Positions 3,749 through 13,336 of a DNA stretch of 13,336 nucleotides are shown in pieces (the first letter of the stretch is position 1; each line of letters opens with the position of its first letter). Under the pieces are notes generated by a model. That model was given only the letters and a program-made list of their open reading frames with translations. It was not told the DNA's origin and searched no databases. The stretch is from a virus. Lineage: Duplodnaviria > Heunggongvirae > Uroviricota > Caudoviricetes. Location of the stretch: the IMG/VR virus record IMGVR_UViG_2751185957_000009; one strand, 5' to 3'. A program made the position numbers and the translations under genes.

Positions 3749-4183
3749 TTACTGTTCTGTATCGGCTGATTGCTCCATGCTGGCACGGCGAACGCTTACG
3801 GCATGACGCCACCCAGCCAGAAAGCCAGCCATTTTATTTCGTGCCTTGCTCACATCTTCCGGTGAATAGCCGTAAATCTGCAAACCTTCATCAAATCGAT
3901 GTTCTGTTTCTTCACTGGAGTACTCGTCACGCTCAGATGAAAGCAGCCTGGCAAACATAATTTTTTCCAGCGCACTGGTTTCTACGTGATATCTGATGGC
4001 CTCAAGACGGCTTTTACCTGAAGACCAAAGCAATGTATGCCCGATGTGATAACCGCCAGACTTTCCGCGATCCGCATTAAGATACGGCATCCCCTGTTTG
4101 GTCCATGCGCGAATAGTGGTTCTGTTAACCTTGAAATGTTCAGCTATTTCCTGCTGACTTACAAAACAAGCTTTATCAATCAT
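3749..4183 (-). CDS. Nu1-like small terminase subunit / packaging-specificity protein (144 aa, shorter than lambda gpNu1)
   Basis: The N-terminus (DKACFVSQQEIAEHFKVNRTTIRAWTKQGMPY) parallels the lambda gpNu1 winged-HTH region (NKKQLADIFGASIRTIQNWQEQGMPV). AAGGT Shine-Dalgarno 6 nt before the ATG. Lies between two cosN copies. Confidence 0.7.
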   Translation of the reverse strand: MIDKACFVSQQEIAEHFKVNRTTIRAWTKQGMPYLNADRGKSGGYHIGHTLLWSSGKSRLEAIRYHVETSALEKIMFARLLSSERDEYSSEETEHRFDEGLQIYGYSPEDVSKARNKMAGFLAGWRHAVSVRRASMEQSADTEQ

Positions 4184-4316: not shown

Positions 4317-4338
4317 AAAAAAGCCGGATTTCTCCGGC
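4317..4338 (-). terminator. Rho-independent terminator ending the capsid operon
   Basis: On the minus strand: GCCGGA-GAAA-TCCGGC followed by TTTTTT, 7 nt after the stop at 4345. Confidence 0.7.
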
Positions 4339-4344
4339 CTTGTC

Positions 4345-5117: not shown

Positions 5118-6173
5118 TTAACCAATTTTGACGGTAACAAATTTGCGAATATCTGCCGGAACCGGCTGCGGTGCGCTGTGTGTCTGCACGTACTCAATCG
5201 CCGGATCGCCGTCCTCAATCCAGTTTTTCGGGTAGTACATGTTTTGCGTTGCGCCCGTTCTTACCGCTTCCTGATCCATAATCGCACCATAGGCCACCAG
5301 CCCTTTATTGTTGGTGTTGCCCAGGACCAGCAAATCAGGCTCAAGGAAATATTTTTCGGTGCCGTCGCTGTCAGTGTATTTGCCGGAATAGACAATAAGA
5401 GCAATATCGCCCAGATAGCCTTTAAAGCTCACCACTTCGCCCAGGTTTTTACAGGCCATTTCTGCGGCGGATTCTGAACCACGGGAAAGATCGTACAGTT
5501 CACGGAATTTTTTAAAGCTGCGTAACGTGCGCCATACCTCAGCGCCCATAATCATGACGTTGGCGGGGCAACCTGCCTGATCTGCGTATAGTTCGATGTC
5601 ATAGATTGGATCGTAAATATCTTTATCATGCTCGGACCATTTTTTGCCGTCGGACTGCTCTATGATGTTTTTTTCCGGTATCTTCCAGTCGATTTCATAG
5701 CGTTCTATGCCTTCGCCCTCAATGATGTTTTTTCCGGTCGTTACCGCATTCACCGCCAGCCATTCCACGCGTGCCTTAATGGCGTTTATCTGGCGGCGCA
5801 TGTTGCCAGTAATCAGGCGCATACGGCGATAGGTAGGGTCGTTAAGCTGTGCCGGATCTTCTCCAGCCATGCGCATGATGGTTTTCGTTGGATCGATTTC
5901 GTGCTTTGGCTTCATGTAGCCAGGTTTGATTGTGCTGGTTTCGTACCCTTTATCGCGCTGAACCTGGCTACCCACCATAGGCGAACAAAACGCCGACATG
6001 GTGACTTCTTCAATGTCCAGGGTATCCAGCATGATGTTTTGCGTGCTGAATGTCGCCACGTTCGGGAAAAACAGCGTGGTAAACAGAGGGCTGAATTTAA
6101 AATCCGCAATATCCCCGCGATTCAGGTACATAAAAAGCTGGTTAGTGTTAAGTGCCGTTGCTTTGCCTGCCAT
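5118..6173 (-). CDS. Major capsid protein, lambda gpE homolog (351 aa)
   Basis: Conserved blocks shared with lambda gpE along the whole length: DFKFSPLFTTLFF, IKPGYMKPKHEIDP, GEDPAQLNDPTYRRMRLI, VSFKGYLGDIALIVYSG, YPKNWIEDGDPAIEY. Roughly 45-50% identity by eye. Confidence 0.9.
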   Translation of the reverse strand: MAGKATALNTNQLFMYLNRGDIADFKFSPLFTTLFFPNVATFSTQNIMLDTLDIEEVTMSAFCSPMVGSQVQRDKGYETSTIKPGYMKPKHEIDPTKTIMRMAGEDPAQLNDPTYRRMRLITGNMRRQINAIKARVEWLAVNAVTTGKNIIEGEGIERYEIDWKIPEKNIIEQSDGKKWSEHDKDIYDPIYDIELYADQAGCPANVMIMGAEVWRTLRSFKKFRELYDLSRGSESAAEMACKNLGEVVSFKGYLGDIALIVYSGKYTDSDGTEKYFLEPDLLVLGNTNNKGLVAYGAIMDQEAVRTGATQNMYYPKNWIEDGDPAIEYVQTHSAPQPVPADIRKFVTVKIG

Positions 6174-6379
6174 TATTCACCCCCATAATTTTTATGCATC
6201 CCAAGCGCCGCAAGTAAATAAGAGCGTACAAGTGAACCTATCGACGGCTCCGGCGTCATCAGCGGATCCAGTCCAGCCGCCACGCCAGCCTCATAGTTTT
6301 TTTTGTGGCGCTGCTTGAGCACCTCCACGATTTCGGGGCTTATGTACACCGAAACACCGCCTTTTTTCTCTTCAGCCAT
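6173..6379 (-). CDS. Hypothetical small protein (68 aa), first gene of the capsid operon, coupled to the E-like gene
   Basis: Its stop overlaps the E-like start (TAATG). AGGAA Shine-Dalgarno. No family recognised. Confidence 0.55.
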   Translation of the reverse strand: MAEEKKGGVSVYISPEIVEVLKQRHKKNYEAGVAAGLDPLMTPEPSIGSLVRSYLLAALGMHKNYGGE

Positions 6380-6407
6380 AGTAAGAAATTCCTCTTCGAC
6401 TAAAAAA

Positions 6408-6463
6408 ATCAGGACTGGATGTTTATCCAGTCCTGATTATAATCAGAATTGCATTTTATGCAA
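6408..6463 (-). promoter_or_regulatory. Putative sigma70 promoter (TTGCAT-16-TATAAT) overlapped by a perfect 13-bp inverted repeat, upstream of the capsid operon
   Basis: Minus strand: -35 TTGCAT (6463-6458), -10 TATAAT (6441-6436). Palindrome ATCAGGACTGGAT-GTTT-ATCCAGTCCTGAT at 6408-6437, followed on the minus strand by seven T. A second small palindrome TTGCATTTTATGCAA at 6449-6463. Confidence 0.5.
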
Positions 6464-6540
6464 TAATATTGAGTTATGTTGCAAATTATGAAATGATTAT
6501 CCCGATCACGAACGCCAGTGCATCCAAAAACCTCATATGC

Positions 6541-6609
6541 AAAAGCCCGATAAGAACCCTCTGACCTTATCGGGCTTTTTTGGGCGCAAAAAAGCCGGAT
6601 TGCTCCGGC
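6541..6609 (-). terminator. Tandem rho-independent terminators after the 74-aa gene
   Basis: Hairpin 1 (6545-6575): 9-bp stem GCCCGATAA/TTATCGGGC flanked by A4 and T6, so bidirectional. Hairpin 2 (6594-6609): GCCGGA-TTGC-TCCGGC with an A6 run, which is a T-run on the minus strand. Confidence 0.65.
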
Positions 6610-6629
6610 TATGTGTGCTGTGTGCTGGA

Positions 6630-6854
6630 TCAGTCTCTGATCTCTTTCAGAAATTCTATCAATGCATCTATCTGTTCAGGATTTACCGCCAGCATTTCAC
6701 CGGATAGAGCACATCTCACAAAACCATGCTGATCCTTTTCAATCAGTGCGCCCGTCTCCAGGAATGCGCGGTAATCATTGATGCTCATCGTCTCCATGTT
6801 GTCAGCATGGTATTTATCACGCTGTTTTAATATCTCATCAAATTTCATCGGCAT
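6630..6854 (-). CDS. Hypothetical small protein (74 aa), stand-alone gene bracketed by terminators
   Basis: ORF with its own upstream intergenic region (6855-6950), terminators on both sides. No family recognised. Confidence 0.5.
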   Translation of the reverse strand: MPMKFDEILKQRDKYHADNMETMSINDYRAFLETGALIEKDQHGFVRCALSGEMLAVNPEQIDALIEFLKEIRD

Positions 6855-6950
6855 TGTTTTTTTCCTCTGTTGTGTCTGTTTGTTTCAGATAGTAACTATG
6901 CCTGACCGTGACGAAAACCCGGTAATGCGCCATACCGTTTCAACTGGTGC

Positions 6951-6972
6951 AAAAAAGCCGGATTTCTCCGGC
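6951..6972 (-). terminator. Rho-independent terminator after the PerC-like gene
   Basis: AAAAAA-GCCGGA-TTTC-TCCGGC, reading hairpin then T6 on the minus strand, 8 nt after the stop at 6980. Same module as 4317-4338. Confidence 0.7.
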
Positions 6973-6979
6973 TGTTTGA

Positions 6980-7252
6980 TTAGCTGTCCTGGTAATTGCG
7001 CCATATTTCATCACCAGCACCATCTATACCCATTTCGGCATAAGTGCGATCGACTGCCTTTTTCAGGTCTCCGAAATTATCCGGCGGCTCCGGTGCCCTC
7101 TGTGCCTTCCTTGAACATTCCAGCCGTCGCATCGTGATGTGATGCCGTTCCTTGTCTGTCTCCACCAGCTGCATGACTTCACCCCATCGCGCCGCCGCCC
7201 TCCGGTAAAAGCCTTTCGCCTCCAGTTCCTCCGCTATGCGGTCATGTACCAT
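6980..7252 (-). CDS. PerC-family transcriptional regulator homolog (about 90 aa; an upstream in-frame start at 7372 is possible)
   Basis: Motif IAEELEAKGFYRRAAARWGEVM matches the PerC-family signature as I recall it (AExLExxGxWRRAAxRW). The ATG at 7252 is preceded by GAGGGGG and lies 11 nt after the SSB stop. Family assignment from memory. Confidence 0.6.
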   Translation of the reverse strand: MVHDRIAEELEAKGFYRRAAARWGEVMQLVETDKERHHITMRRLECSRKAQRAPEPPDNFGDLKKAVDRTYAEMGIDGAGDEIWRNYQDS

Positions 7253-7262
7253 CGTCACCCCC

Positions 7263-7673
7263 TCAGAACGAAATATCATCACCGTAAGGGTCATCGCCTC
7301 CCGCTGGTGGCTGATTACCCTGTGTGCCTGTGGTTTTGCGTCTGTTCCCGCCTGGACGTGCCGCGCGGGCACTGATTACGCTGTCTGCGATAACCTGCCA
7401 GCCCTGCCGCGTTTCTCCGTTCTGTCCGGTCCACTGGCTTACCTGCATCGTGCCGGATACGCTGGCAACATCGCCTTTTTGATGTTTAGCCAGGAAGTCG
7501 GCCTGTTTGCCAAATGCGATGACCGATAACCATAACGTCGCCTGTCCGTCCTGTGCCTGGCTGCATGGCAAAGATACCGCCATACGCGCCAGCGTCATCG
7601 GTGTGCCCTTGCTGGTCTGTTTTACCTGCGGGTCGTCCACCAGCCGCCCGTAAGCGGCTATCTGTGCCGTCAT
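7263..7673 (-). CDS. ssb: Single-stranded DNA-binding protein (136 aa)
   Basis: OB-fold pattern (GRLVDDP..., WLSVIAFGKQADFLAKHQKGDVASVSGTMQVSQWTGQNGETRQGWQVIADSV), Gly/Pro-rich linker and acidic C-terminal tip DDPYGDDISF resembling the SSB DDDIPF tail. Strong GGAGAGGTGG Shine-Dalgarno. Confidence 0.8.
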   Translation of the reverse strand: MTAQIAAYGRLVDDPQVKQTSKGTPMTLARMAVSLPCSQAQDGQATLWLSVIAFGKQADFLAKHQKGDVASVSGTMQVSQWTGQNGETRQGWQVIADSVISARAARPGGNRRKTTGTQGNQPPAGGDDPYGDDISF

Positions 7674-7930: not shown

Positions 7931-8123
7931 CCTCTCACTTTTTCGCCTCACTTTTTCAAGCGTCTCACTTCGTCGCAGTTGGGATTTTCGGTTTTTCTAT
8001 GTGTGTGTTTTATAAGTATTTTTTTACCCCTCACTTTTGAGGATGTATACAGGTCGAAAAGTGAGGGAGAGCGGGCTAATTTTGGCCCTCTTTCTATCCC
8101 CCTCGCTTTTGCTCCTCACTTTT
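7931..8123. repeat. Putative replication origin: at least six CCTCACTTTT iterons around an AT-rich spacer, directly 3' of the replicase gene
   Basis: Iterons at 7934, 7948, 7964 (variant), 8029, 8101 (variant) and 8114, plus one inverted copy at 8057-8066. AT-rich stretch 7991-8027. The last iteron overlaps the replicase stop codon. Confidence 0.65.
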
Positions 8124-9522
8124 ATAGCGGCGCTACATCATCCCCATCGATACTAATAACCCCATCTTTTTCCAGCTTGTACAGCCAGCGCCGGAAGTTT
8201 TTCATTTCATACCCCAGCTTTTTCATGTCATCACGTAACAGCGGGATCGTGCACTTGTCGCCGTTCTGTGTGCGTGAACGGATGCACCCCCATAGCGCGG
8301 TATGGTTTTCCGTCTTGTTCCCTGCCTCCTCGATGCGCTCCAGTTCAACAGGAGGGCGCGGATCATCCACCACCACCAGCGACGTGATTAATTCACCGTC
8401 AGCGTCGGTAAAAAGCTCCACCACGCGTAAGTCATATGCGGCTTCTTTGAGTTCCTCCGCGTCCTTCATTTTGGTGCATGAGATAACCAGCGCTTTGCTT
8501 CCTGCGTCCTCCCTGCGTATCCGGTATTCAGCATCCAGCGAAGCACGAAATGCACTGGAACCGCGCGCGCCTTTCGTCTCATCCTTGCCGGAATGGTGAA
8601 CCACCAGCACCGTGGCCCCTGTGCGTCGTTTCAGTTCGTCACAACCACGGATAAACGCCCCCATATCACGGGAATCATTTTCATCATTCCCACCAAAGCA
8701 ACGCGCCAGCGTATCCAGAATAATCATGCGTACAGGTTTACCCGTTTCCCGCTCCACCTGACGGGCAGCGATAACCATTTCATCAACATCAAGCGGGGCA
8801 GCCGGAAAGATGGGGCGGTTTACCAGATACAGATTTTTCACCTGCTCATCGTGCACAACCTCCCAGGCTTTTACACGACGCGGAACGCCGATACCGCCTT
8901 CACCAACCACATAGAGAACCGCACCATGTGCAACCCTGCGGCCTCCCCACTGGCGACCAGTGGCAACATGGCACGCCCACGATCCGGCAAGGAATGATTT
9001 ATAGGACCCGCTAGCCCCGTATATGCTGCATAGCGATACCGCCGGAATAATCCCCTTAACCACGTAATCCAGTTGCGTGTCGTATCCGGTAGATCCAACG
9101 CTCATCGGTAGCGTGGTTTTTCGCTGGTGGTTTTTTTCTTCCACCGGCTCTTTCCCGCGCACCCGTTCCAGGTATTCGCGCCAGTTCTCCCGCATATGGC
9201 TGTGCATCCCTTCGGGGTAATAATTCGCATCAGTTACACCCGCCGCCGCCAGCTTGTGCGCAATGGCATTAATATTTGATGGCCTGATGTGGCCTGCCTT
9301 GTACAGCCGGACACAATAGCGCCCCTCGTCGATGATTCTCAGGTCTGCCAGTTCATCCAGTTGATCATCAGCCAGCACAACGGGAGGCACATTATCGCCA
9401 GCCAGTCGCCCGTCCTGTTCCTGCCACTGTTTTGCATGTGCCCAGGCATCACTACCCGCAAAAATAATGACTTCGGTCATCTTGTCGTAAGGCTGTTTTT
9501 TTAAGTTCGGTGCGCTTTTCAT
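8122..9522 (-). CDS. Replication protein with RecA-like AAA_25 ATPase domain (satellite replicase/helicase, 466 aa)
   Basis: P-loop-like YGASGSYKSF, Walker B-like MIILD, and the signature VLVVHHSGKDETKGARGSSAFRASLDAEY typical of AAA_25 replicative ATPases. Its start overlaps the upstream ORF stop (ATGA). Confidence 0.8.
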   Translation of the reverse strand: MKSAPNLKKQPYDKMTEVIIFAGSDAWAHAKQWQEQDGRLAGDNVPPVVLADDQLDELADLRIIDEGRYCVRLYKAGHIRPSNINAIAHKLAAAGVTDANYYPEGMHSHMRENWREYLERVRGKEPVEEKNHQRKTTLPMSVGSTGYDTQLDYVVKGIIPAVSLCSIYGASGSYKSFLAGSWACHVATGRQWGGRRVAHGAVLYVVGEGGIGVPRRVKAWEVVHDEQVKNLYLVNRPIFPAAPLDVDEMVIAARQVERETGKPVRMIILDTLARCFGGNDENDSRDMGAFIRGCDELKRRTGATVLVVHHSGKDETKGARGSSAFRASLDAEYRIRREDAGSKALVISCTKMKDAEELKEAAYDLRVVELFTDADGELITSLVVVDDPRPPVELERIEEAGNKTENHTALWGCIRSRTQNGDKCTIPLLRDDMKKLGYEMKNFRRWLYKLEKDGVISIDGDDVAPL

Positions 9523-9818
9523 TTCTTGCCCCTGAATCCGTTAATCATGGTTTTCAGCTTCTGGATGTTTGCCCGTGCCCTGGCGTTGCTGGTGGGCACG
9601 TTATGCGGCGCGGTCTGTACCAGAGAAAAATCACGCCGGAACTGATAAACAGGCATCACGCAATCATATTCGTAACCTTCACGGCGGTAGGTTACACGCC
9701 GTTCTTCCACGCCCTTAATCATTACCGTGCCGCCGTACTGGTCGCGGTAAATATCACCGCGCGTAAATTTAGGGTGAGTGTTGCCACTGGCAGTTAAGCC
9801 AGAATATTTAAGTTTCAT
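9519..9818 (-). CDS. Hypothetical protein (99 aa), coupled to the replicase
   Basis: ORF with GGAGA Shine-Dalgarno; its stop overlaps the replicase ATG. Confidence 0.5.
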   Translation of the reverse strand: MKLKYSGLTASGNTHPKFTRGDIYRDQYGGTVMIKGVEERRVTYRREGYEYDCVMPVYQFRRDFSLVQTAPHNVPTSNARARANIQKLKTMINGFRGKK

Positions 9819-12094: not shown

Positions 12095-13336
12095 CTACAC
12101 GGCTCGGATACCCCTTTTACCACTGGCGAGGGTTACGCCCGTCGCCGCAGCCTCGACAAATTCGCCCCACCAGCGCATCAGCACGATGCGTTTTTCTATG
12201 TAGTTGCTCCGGTTGTATGCCCGTCTAACTTCGTTGGTGTCGACGTGGGCAAGTGCCGCCTCTATTACGTCCGGCTCGAATCCTTCCTCGTTCGCTGCTG
12301 TGCTGAATATGGCGCGTAATCCATGAGACACCAGCACGCCAGCGAATCCCATACGCCGCAATGCTGCGTTAGCTGTCTGGCTGTTCATCGGCTGCTGTGG
12401 GTCTTTCAGACTTGGGAAAACGTAATTGCGGTGGTGGCTGATTGGTTTCATGGCCTCCAGCACCGCCATAGCCTGACCGGAAAGCGGGATAACGTGATCC
12501 CTGCGCATCTTCATGCGTCCGGCAGGTATCGTCCATTGCTTCGCGTCCAGGTTGATTTCATCCCACCGCGTTGATGACGCTTCGGCGGGACGGGTTACGG
12601 TCAGTAACTGCCATTCAATCAGTAATCTGGTCTGCCGTTCTGTTGCCGATACTGATAAAGCCTGCATAAGCTCCGGCAGCTGTTCGGGGCGGATTGTTGG
12701 CATATGTTTTTTTACAGGTGAGGGAAACGCCTTACGCACATTCATAGCCGGATTGGCATCAATCAGCCCACTGTTGGCGGCGTAATCCATTACCTCATTA
12801 ACGCGCTGTAAAACCCGCTTGAGTGTTTCCAGGTTGCCGCGCTCCTTGATGGGTGTAAGCACTTCAACGAACCTTCGGGCGGTGAGGGTATCTATTGGCG
12901 TGTTGCCGATGAACGGGAATACATATTTATCCAGCGAACGCCAGATGTCTTTAATCGTGTTGGGGGCCAGATTCTGGCTGATTTTCACCTGGTACCATGC
13001 CGCCGCCACATTTTCGAACGTGTTCCCTTGTCTTCGGGCCTCTGCCTCTCGTTTTTTCTTCTCATGGCCCTGCGGGTCAGTTCCGGCACTGATTAACGCT
13101 CTGTACTCGCTACGGCGTTTTCTGGCATCAGCCAGGGAAACATCATCAAGCGATCCAAAACTCAGCAATATTCTTTTTTTGTCCGATGGCCGGTAGTAGG
13201 AAAATCGCCAGAGTTTTGATCCGGACGGTTTGACCAGGAGAAAAAGCCCTCCGCCGTCCTGTAGGGTGTATTCCTTTTCCGCTGGTCTGGCTGCTTTGAT
13301 CTGCACCGTGGTTAATGGGGGTGTTTTTCTCGCCAT
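12095..13336 (-). CDS. int: P4-type tyrosine integrase (413 aa)
   Basis: N-terminal arm-binding domain typical of P4-like integrases (LTTVQIKAARPAEKEYTLQDGGGLFLLVKPSGSKLWRFSYY), C-terminal catalytic region with HGLR and the tyrosine in RRAYNRSNY. Start codon is the last three bases of the window. Confidence 0.9.
   Translation of the reverse strand: MARKTPPLTTVQIKAARPAEKEYTLQDGGGLFLLVKPSGSKLWRFSYYRPSDKKRILLSFGSLDDVSLADARKRRSEYRALISAGTDPQGHEKKKREAEARRQGNTFENVAAAWYQVKISQNLAPNTIKDIWRSLDKYVFPFIGNTPIDTLTARRFVEVLTPIKERGNLETLKRVLQRVNEVMDYAANSGLIDANPAMNVRKAFPSPVKKHMPTIRPEQLPELMQALSVSATERQTRLLIEWQLLTVTRPAEASSTRWDEINLDAKQWTIPAGRMKMRRDHVIPLSGQAMAVLEAMKPISHHRNYVFPSLKDPQQPMNSQTANAALRRMGFAGVLVSHGLRAIFSTAANEEGFEPDVIEAALAHVDTNEVRRAYNRSNYIEKRIVLMRWWGEFVEAAATGVTLASGKRGIRAV

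Follow-up and report, generated by a model that had tools for sequence, protein, structure and literature searches.

A small accessory gene of phage-inducible chromosomal islands bounded by two copies of one terminator hairpin

The stretch of DNA considered here (the window; 13,336 nt, IMG/VR virus record IMGVR_UViG_2751185957_000009) carries at 6630-6854 on the minus strand an open reading frame (ORF) of 74 amino acids, which is a small and previously uncharacterised accessory gene of phage-inducible chromosomal island (PICI) satellites. The window itself is an EcCICFT073-like PICI, since its gene set fits the published description of EcCICFT073 (PMC6092414; PMC6739421). All island genes in the window lie on the minus strand, in the order integrase (12095-13336), AlpA-like helix-turn-helix (HTH) protein, Icd-like proteins, a DUF4222 protein with an RGD motif, RepA-type helicase (8122-9522), single-stranded DNA-binding protein (SSB), PerC, the 74-amino-acid ORF, a 68-amino-acid protein, lambda-E-type major capsid protein, gpD-like decoration protein, a Nu3-like protein of 137 amino acids and a 144-amino-acid HTH protein. 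The ORF stands at the end of the early replication and regulation block, just before the packaging operon, and its immediate surroundings are, in gene orientation:

6980-7252, minus strand: PerC-family (PchE-like) gene (Pfam PerC, E = 1.2e-42), directly upstream of the ORF
6956-6973, minus strand: PerC-proximal terminator hairpin (copy R), AGCCGGA-GAAA-TCCGGCT with loop GAAA, then T6 at 6955-6950
6855-6955, minus strand: 101-nt leader with a GAGG Shine-Dalgarno sequence at 6867-6864, no convincing sigma-70 promoter and no significant RNA structure
6630-6854, minus strand: the 74-amino-acid ORF, ATG start, phrog_1957 family, homologue of EDL933_1785 / WP_001132080.1
6593-6610, minus strand: post-ORF terminator hairpin (copy L), loop GCAA, then T6 at 6592-6587, a duplicate of copy R
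6541-6579, no strand assigned: second hairpin of a 'double terminator', 14-bp arms with an A-run and a T-run on either side

Copy R lies directly after the PerC stop codon and upstream of the ORF (centroid hairpin -12.6 kcal/mol; its 41-nt segment -13.2 kcal/mol, z = -3.9). The copy L segment folds at -15.9 kcal/mol (z = -4.4) and the hairpin at 6541-6579 at -22.1 kcal/mol (z = -4.3). The initial annotation had placed the ORF between a PerC terminator and a double terminator, and the three hairpins at 6973-6956, 6610-6593 and 6541-6579, with z from -3.9 to -4.4, bear this out. That the bracketing terminators are copies of one sequence had escaped it.

A coding gene of a satellite-specific family

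The ATG of the ORF stands 9 nt after the Shine-Dalgarno sequence, and the predicted product is an acidic protein of 8.6 kDa with a computed pI of 4.8 and a net charge of about -6. It matches the phrog_1957 hidden Markov model (HMM) with E = 2.3e-42, residues 1-74 falling on profile positions 1-74 of 82; phrog_1957 is a prophage/satellite family of unknown function. Among 13 E. coli nucleotide alleles 16 of the 26 variable sites are at codon position 3 and the ratio of non-synonymous to synonymous polymorphism (pN/pS) is approximately 0.13, placing the ORF under purifying selection. The AlphaFold2 model of the protein has a pLDDT of 91.7, with three helices, three strands and one helix predicted. 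Comparison of this fold matched no known relative, and a winged-helix test, which looked for a winged HTH structural match and a basic recognition surface, was negative; an enzymatic or DNA-binding signature was likewise not found in the protein.

When 1.84 billion representative proteins were searched exhaustively with HMMER, approximately 20 homologue clusters were recovered, single-domain proteins of 66-106 amino acids with identities down to approximately 33%; the sole other match, a 1383-amino-acid repeat protein, we regard as spurious. A profile search added members from Klebsiella, Citrobacter, Ewingella and Arsenophonus, all annotated as hypothetical proteins, and a tblastn search of the product against 50,697 phage records gave zero matches. 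Searches with Pfam, NCBIfam and PADLOC returned nothing significant for the ORF product or for 18 members of its family. The initial annotation had regarded the locus as a typical location for anti-phage proteins, a reading left unsupported by PADLOC-DB 2.0, in which 0 families matched the 74-amino-acid product at E ≤ 0.1. Of 5426 complete E. coli genomes 541 carry the ORF and 964 carry PerC homologues; the ORF is present in the prototype capsid-forming PICI (cf-PICI) EcCIEDL933, where the homologue sits between PerC and the capsid gene, and absent from EcCICFT073. The ORF is a genuine gene for a small acidic protein, specific to the phage satellites of the Enterobacterales, both classical EcCICFT073-like PICIs and cf-PICIs.

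The cassette and its duplicated hairpin

The slot was surveyed in E. coli-type islands by a census anchored on PerC (80 IMG/VR loci) and by one anchored on the capsid gene (71 lambda-E-type and 35 HK97-type islands), the latter scoring the whole interval from SSB to capsid. In the PerC-anchored census 37 of the 80 loci were occupied by the ORF (23 with an E-type backbone and 14 with an HK97-type one) and 43 were empty, and alternative cargo was found in the hairpin-bounded slot of none. The slot is thus binary, holding the ORF or nothing in 80/80 PerC loci, and the initial annotation's idea of a hotspot for variable cargo is not supported by this comparison. After PerC exactly one hairpin copy is seen where the ORF is missing and two where it is present, with approximately 345-355 nt between them, a rule which holds both on the lambda-E-type PICI (the window versus L004) and on the HK97-type cf-PICI (L002 versus L003). 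In the E. coli islands, then, leader, ORF and terminator form a cassette of approximately 355-363 bp between two copies of a GNRA-loop terminator, a hairpin which elsewhere stands as a single copy at the end of the PerC (PchE-like) gene.

The wider SSB-to-capsid interval is variable, with at least four states (empty, PerC, PerC with the ORF, and a second PerC type with a ProQ/FinO-like protein). Its content in the capsid-anchored census was:

nothing: E-type 30/71, HK97-type 0/35
PerC only: E-type 21/71, HK97-type 18/35
PerC and the ORF: E-type 19/71, HK97-type 16/35
divergent PerC and a ProQ/FinO-domain protein: E-type 1/71, HK97-type 0/35
divergent PerC and a divergent member of the ORF family: E-type 0/71, HK97-type 1/35

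The ORF is dispensable to the islands, being present in 37/80 PerC-anchored loci and in the 19/71 and 16/35 islands of the two capsid types. It never occurs without PerC in E. coli-type islands, all 35 ORF-positive loci of the capsid-anchored census carrying PerC. Two dependencies were considered and rejected, one on replicase type, as the ORF is seen with all four types and each type is also seen without it, and one on capsid type, as it occurs on both capsid backbones; the ORF thus reassorts freely.

PerC is optional too: the 30 E-type islands with an empty interval run from SSB into the upstream region of the capsid operon without it (for example L152, L163, L198 and L207), 20 of them with one detected hairpin copy and 10 with none. 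An alternative content was seen in the E-type PICIs L197 (2052-3036) and L204 (256-1240), in which a divergent 106-amino-acid PerC-like gene overlaps a gene for a 226-amino-acid protein in which Pfam recognises a ProQ/FinO RNA-chaperone domain (E = 2.1e-26), and the same hairpin ends the unit.

Copies R and L form a 33-nt direct repeat, 88% identical and 363 bp apart. With a 7-bp stem containing five GC pairs, a 4-nt loop and T6 they fit an intrinsic terminator, termination being predicted from sequence. Across the 80 PerC loci the loop varies only within GNRA (GAAA, GCAA, GTAA and GGAA), which argues that an RNA hairpin, i.e. a terminator, is under selection. Occupied sites combine a proximal GAAA with a distal GCAA loop in 32/37 cases, and the proximal loop is GAAA in 34/36 of the occupied sites with two detected hairpins; at empty sites the loops are GCAA (21), GTAA (11), GAAA (8) and GGAA (1). 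Three occurrences of the 22-nt hairpin core stand in the window, where chance would give 0.00, and terminator-like sites in the whole window number 34 against 15.4 +/- 4.2 in shuffles. The third copy is:

4318-4339, minus strand: hairpin copy after the capsid-assembly operon and before rppA

Because this copy closes the capsid-assembly operon before rppA, we conclude that one hairpin sequence is reused at several module boundaries of these islands. A third copy was also seen in L001 (5919-5938) and L004 (2200-2219).

The second hairpin of the 'double terminator' behaves differently. It is kept at L004, an empty E-type site, but the HK97-type backbones L002 and L003 do not have it, and by this distribution it belongs to the upstream region of the lambda-E-type capsid module and not to the cassette.

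Most simply, the empty sites would have arisen by deletion, through recombination of one hairpin repeat with the other; in L003, for example, a distal-type loop is joined to the PerC-side flank. The hairpin may also act as a joint for module exchange. On a third backbone, which has a protease-capsid fusion, a single hairpin forms the junction with PerC, so that three different packaging modules meet the early block at this hairpin. A duplicated GNRA-loop terminator at module joints provides a sequence-level handle on module exchange and loss in these mosaic satellites, and natural pairs of islands with and without the ORF, close to isogenic, exist.

Distant relatives and the site of variable cargo

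Homologues with 33-42% identity occur in cf-PICIs of other Enterobacterales (Klebsiella, Citrobacter and others) at the same position, after a primase or AAA_25 helicase gene and before the HK97 capsid gene. Since the position is kept at this level of divergence, the family is a conserved gene of the satellite lineage standing beside a hotspot, and not itself swappable cargo. PerC is missing from most of these islands: at least eight of the distant cf-PICI loci that carry the family (L005/L140, L006, L007, L009-L011, L132 and L133) have no PerC, Pfam finding none among the neighbours tested. In L138, by comparison, the PerC stop codon overlaps the start of the homologue, and in L131 the gap between a divergent PerC and the divergent homologue downstream of it is 45 nt.

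In several distant lineages differing genes, mostly on the reverse strand, lie between the homologue and the capsid gene. Those noted were:

L132, 2754-3227: gene for a 157-amino-acid protein between homologue and capsid gene
L133, 2807-3217: gene for a 136-amino-acid 'SRQGTDGRV' repeat protein between homologue and capsid gene
L006, 6164-7494: genes for 170- and 254-amino-acid proteins between homologue and capsid gene
L007, 2814-3599, forward strand: gene for a 261-amino-acid protein between homologue and capsid gene
L139, 2077-3185, reverse strand: genes for 139- and 230-amino-acid proteins before the capsid gene, no homologue

Because unrelated genes sit between homologue and capsid gene in these islands, the real variable-cargo site is placed just downstream of the ORF family, which is the last semi-conserved forward gene before it. 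In cf-PICIs the stretch before the packaging operon has been described as a variable region in which immune systems are to be expected (He et al., 2025; bioRxiv 10.1101/2025.02.11.637232). The ORF shares with such regions its place immediately before the packaging operon, where the distant relatives carry unrelated reverse-strand genes, but it is a conserved forward gene on the upstream edge, and known defence families match neither the ORF nor the adjacent cargo; for the cargo genes of L132, L133, L006, L007 and L139, PADLOC and Pfam gave no match. These genes are candidates for novel accessory or defence cargo, and moving the cargo site to the gap between ORF and capsid gene should be useful for mining new genes of both kinds.

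Expression, possible role and island context

The initial annotation had also given the ORF its own promoter region, a claim that scans of the leader at 6855-6955 on the minus strand do not uphold. A consensus scan found no sigma-70-like site at ≥9/12, and the best site of a relaxed sigma-70 scan scored 7/12 (TTTTCG-17-TACTAT at 6917-6889), although an activator-dependent promoter may still exist. The leader, nearly identical in L002, folds with z = +0.95, and an Rfam scan of 6000-7400 gave sub-threshold chance matches only. Across the 3' end of PerC, the hairpin and the leader RefSeq carries a 42-amino-acid 'hypothetical protein' or a 'trigger factor, frameshifted' pseudogene (approximately 6896-7024 on the minus strand in the window; 8498-8626 in L001, 4417-4532 in L002 and 15452-15567 in L227), an annotation that is almost certainly spurious.

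As no promoter was found and the family is directly coupled to PerC in divergent islands, the ORF probably owes its expression to the early operon running in the same direction, with transcripts passing the PerC terminator by read-through or antitermination. Work in Pseudomonas has shown antiterminator activity for AlpA-family proteins. A literature search returned no paper linking AlpA, antitermination and PICIs.

The protein itself has been detected. Amigo et al. (2016) saw the 9-kDa 'phage protein EDL933_1785', a product of CP-933C, by tandem mass tag (TMT) mass spectrometry in exponential DMEM-F12 cultures to which no inducer had been added, and found it 5.35-fold higher in the hypervirulent clade 8 strain Rafaela II than in EDL933; the PchE-like (PerC-family) protein was 3.76-fold higher in the same comparison (PMC5120812). 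The intergenic region upstream of EDL933_1785 was given as 406 nt, of which 385 are identical between TW14359 and EDL933, the pchE-like gene being unannotated in EDL933 (PMC5120812). We measured 407 nt from the SSB stop codon to the ORF homologue in EDL933, 387 of them identical to TW14359, and on this agreement EDL933_1785 is the ORF homologue WP_001132080.1, which differs from the 74-amino-acid product by one residue (E71G). The Rafaela II allele is identical to the ORF of the window. The detection in uninduced cultures may also reflect spontaneous induction of the prophage or satellite in a subpopulation.

EcCIEDL933, the prototype cf-PICI, thus carries a homologue whose product has been seen by mass spectrometry, and there is apparently no prior functional work on it. 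Alqurainy et al. (2023, Cell Host Microbe) mutated each gene of the EcCIEDL933 packaging module, and the mutant of 'hypothetical gene 1792' transferred poorly. The ORF homologue being 1785, gene 1792 would be 1785+7, the small ORF between HNH and TerS, and locus tags 004188, 004195 and 004198 in a single assembly agree with this order; by this mapping the ORF is not gene 1792 and, lying seven genes upstream of it, falls outside the published mutagenesis of the packaging module. In EcCICFT073 the slot is empty, PerC and the 68-amino-acid gene being 255 nt apart, and because this island is without the ORF, the ORF was not part of the pBAD interference screen that found RppA in it (PMC6739421).

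Overall we tentatively favour the reading that the ORF is an optional cassette gene of the satellite cycle whose product modulates a helper or host factor by protein binding, and not interchangeable defence cargo. A protein-binding role, in which the 74-amino-acid product would bind a partner protein and thereby modulate, as an option in the satellite life cycle, a factor of the helper phage or the host, is the most likely function, proposed with low confidence because of its size, its charge, its want of DNA-binding or enzymatic signatures and the analogy to factors such as RppA. This role is the weakest step of the interpretation. RppA of EcCICFT073 binds helper TerS and redirects packaging (PMC6739421), and it provides the functional analogy we would favour for the ORF product: both are small satellite-specific proteins, encoded after the replication origin in the usual place of PICI interference and hijacking genes. 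The ORF product has no sequence or fold similarity to RppA, and EcCICFT073 itself is without the ORF. The ORF is a well-defined candidate for a helper- or host-directed factor, being a real gene confined to satellites, constant in its position and cleanly present in some islands and absent from others.

Several points weigh against the favoured reading. The modulator role draws on size, charge and the absence of other signatures, not on a function given by homology. The ORF is missing from roughly half or more of the islands that are otherwise near-identical, the experimentally mobile EcCICFT073 among them, and is therefore unneeded for the basic satellite cycle. The presence of the protein in uninduced cultures (PMC5120812) fits a constitutive moron as well as it fits a leaky early operon or spontaneous induction. 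Read-through of a canonical terminator, with its 7-bp GC-rich stem and T6, is assumed, and the direction of the insertion or deletion, loss as against gain, is our reconstruction.

A bolder proposal, which we consider possible but on the doubtful side, is that phrog_1957 represents a new class of small acidic satellite-specific effector with no solved structural relative. Such an effector might tune, together with PchE/PerC, the expression of the host (e.g. the enterocyte-effacement locus (LEE) and virulence) or of the helper phage in enterohaemorrhagic E. coli, or might neutralise a helper or host protein in interference or anti-defence, its gain and loss through the duplicated terminator adapting islands to their helpers and hosts.

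A phage moron is a unit of promoter, gene and terminator that has been inserted between conserved genes in lambdoid phages. The ORF resembles one in being discrete and dispensable, with its own terminator, and in lying between two conserved modules; its protein is also detectable without deliberate induction, to which spontaneous induction in a subpopulation may have contributed. It differs in its want of a recognisable promoter, in being bounded by a duplicated terminator and in keeping the same family at the same position across genera, where morons are sporadic and unrelated cargo. The initial annotation had called the locus a moron or accessory slot, and the accessory part of this stands, the ORF being dispensable and precisely bounded, in a variable interval and with a terminator of its own; as for the moron part, no promoter is recognised in the leader. 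That the ORF is nonetheless the stand-alone cargo of an accessory hotspot, acting in anti-phage defence or modulation of the host and its virulence and with expression from the integrated island that does not depend on the satellite cycle, we judge unlikely. The presence/absence polymorphism of a gene with its own terminator, the at least four content states of the SSB-to-capsid interval and the immune systems expected before the cf-PICI packaging operon (bioRxiv 10.1101/2025.02.11.637232) would all suit such cargo. So would the uninduced detection of the protein and its 5.35-fold rise in a clade 8 strain beside the 3.76-fold rise of the PchE-like protein (PMC5120812), and the place of the ORF outside the packaging-module set shown to be needed for transfer. 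What counts against it is that the slot holds the ORF or nothing in 80/80 PerC loci, that the family keeps its position at 33-42% identity in other genera with different cargo downstream, that PADLOC, Pfam and NCBIfam matches are lacking along with a recognisable promoter, and that 74 amino acids without catalytic or membrane features would be unusual for a single-gene defence.

Equally improbable, in our estimate, is a role as partner or co-factor of the PerC/PchE-like regulator, either as an anti-activator or as a co-activator, acting on late genes of the island or on host genes such as those of the LEE. The PerC/PchE-like accessory genes of E. coli PICIs (Fillol-Salom, 2018; PMC6092414; Pick, 2025; PMC11773190) are like the ORF small, optional and co-directional, lying in the same interval between replication and packaging and ending at the same hairpin terminator, and PerC-like proteins resemble ANR-type protein-binding regulators (PMC11773190). 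The presence of PerC at 35/35 ORF-positive census loci, the pairing of a divergent PerC with a divergent family member in L131, the stop/start overlap in L138, which suggests translational coupling, and the rise of both proteins in the same strain (PMC5120812) all speak for a partnership. However, the ORF has no sequence or Pfam relationship to PerC and the family occurs in the at least eight distant cf-PICI loci lacking a PerC gene, approximately half of the PerC-bearing islands are without the ORF, and the nesting of ORF-positive within PerC-positive islands could be purely structural, the cassette being bounded by the PerC terminator.

A function in the packaging or capsid module, as 'hypothetical gene 1792' or as an essential activator or antiterminator of the late operon, is largely refuted and very improbable. 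The ORF does lie immediately upstream of the capsid operon in all lineages, Alqurainy et al. do report a hypothetical gene needed for efficient transfer, and in the E-type capsid operon a promoter-like site and then a strong hairpin with T7 precede the first gene, an arrangement that could need antitermination. Yet the ORF maps to EDL933_1785, which would make 1792 the small ORF between HNH and TerS, near-identical capsid operons and upstream regions occur without the ORF, including in the transfer-proficient EcCICFT073, and the ORF is found with two unrelated capsid modules. The hairpin in question, at 6407-6438 on the minus strand, has perfect 14-bp arms and T7 (-22.2 kcal/mol, z = -7.3) and sits between the promoter-like site at 6492-6463 (minus strand) and the start at 6379 of the 68-amino-acid gene, the first of the capsid operon; its layout, like that of lambda PR'-tR', suggests that the late operon may be under attenuation or antitermination.

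Finally, the notion of a chance non-coding frame between terminators, to which its shortness and its annotation as a mere hypothetical protein might point, is refuted by the third-position bias with pN/pS 0.13, by homologues of the same length conserved at 33-42% identity, and by the confident fold prediction, good Shine-Dalgarno sequence and peptide evidence (PMC5120812).

In the rest of the island, two further genes may be noted. The DUF4222 protein (9519-9818, minus strand) carries the motif TRGDIY and, by its RGD motif, is probably the regulator RgdR. RgdR is encoded by all E. coli PICIs analysed (PMC6092414). The second gene is:

3749-4183, minus strand: RppA, the 144-amino-acid HTH protein, matching the CFT073 protein at the c1503 position in 144/144 residues

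Elsewhere this gene bears the label 'terminase small subunit'. O157:H7 clade 8 strains, TW14359 among them, carry near-identical islands flanked by roxA and phoQ. At its left end (1-2600) the window does not have phoQ, unlike O157 and CFT073; judged from translations, this end holds an IS3-family transposase fragment (19-285) and an autotransporter-like ORF of 746 amino acids (270-2510), and the island of the window would on this account lie in a different or rearranged chromosomal context.

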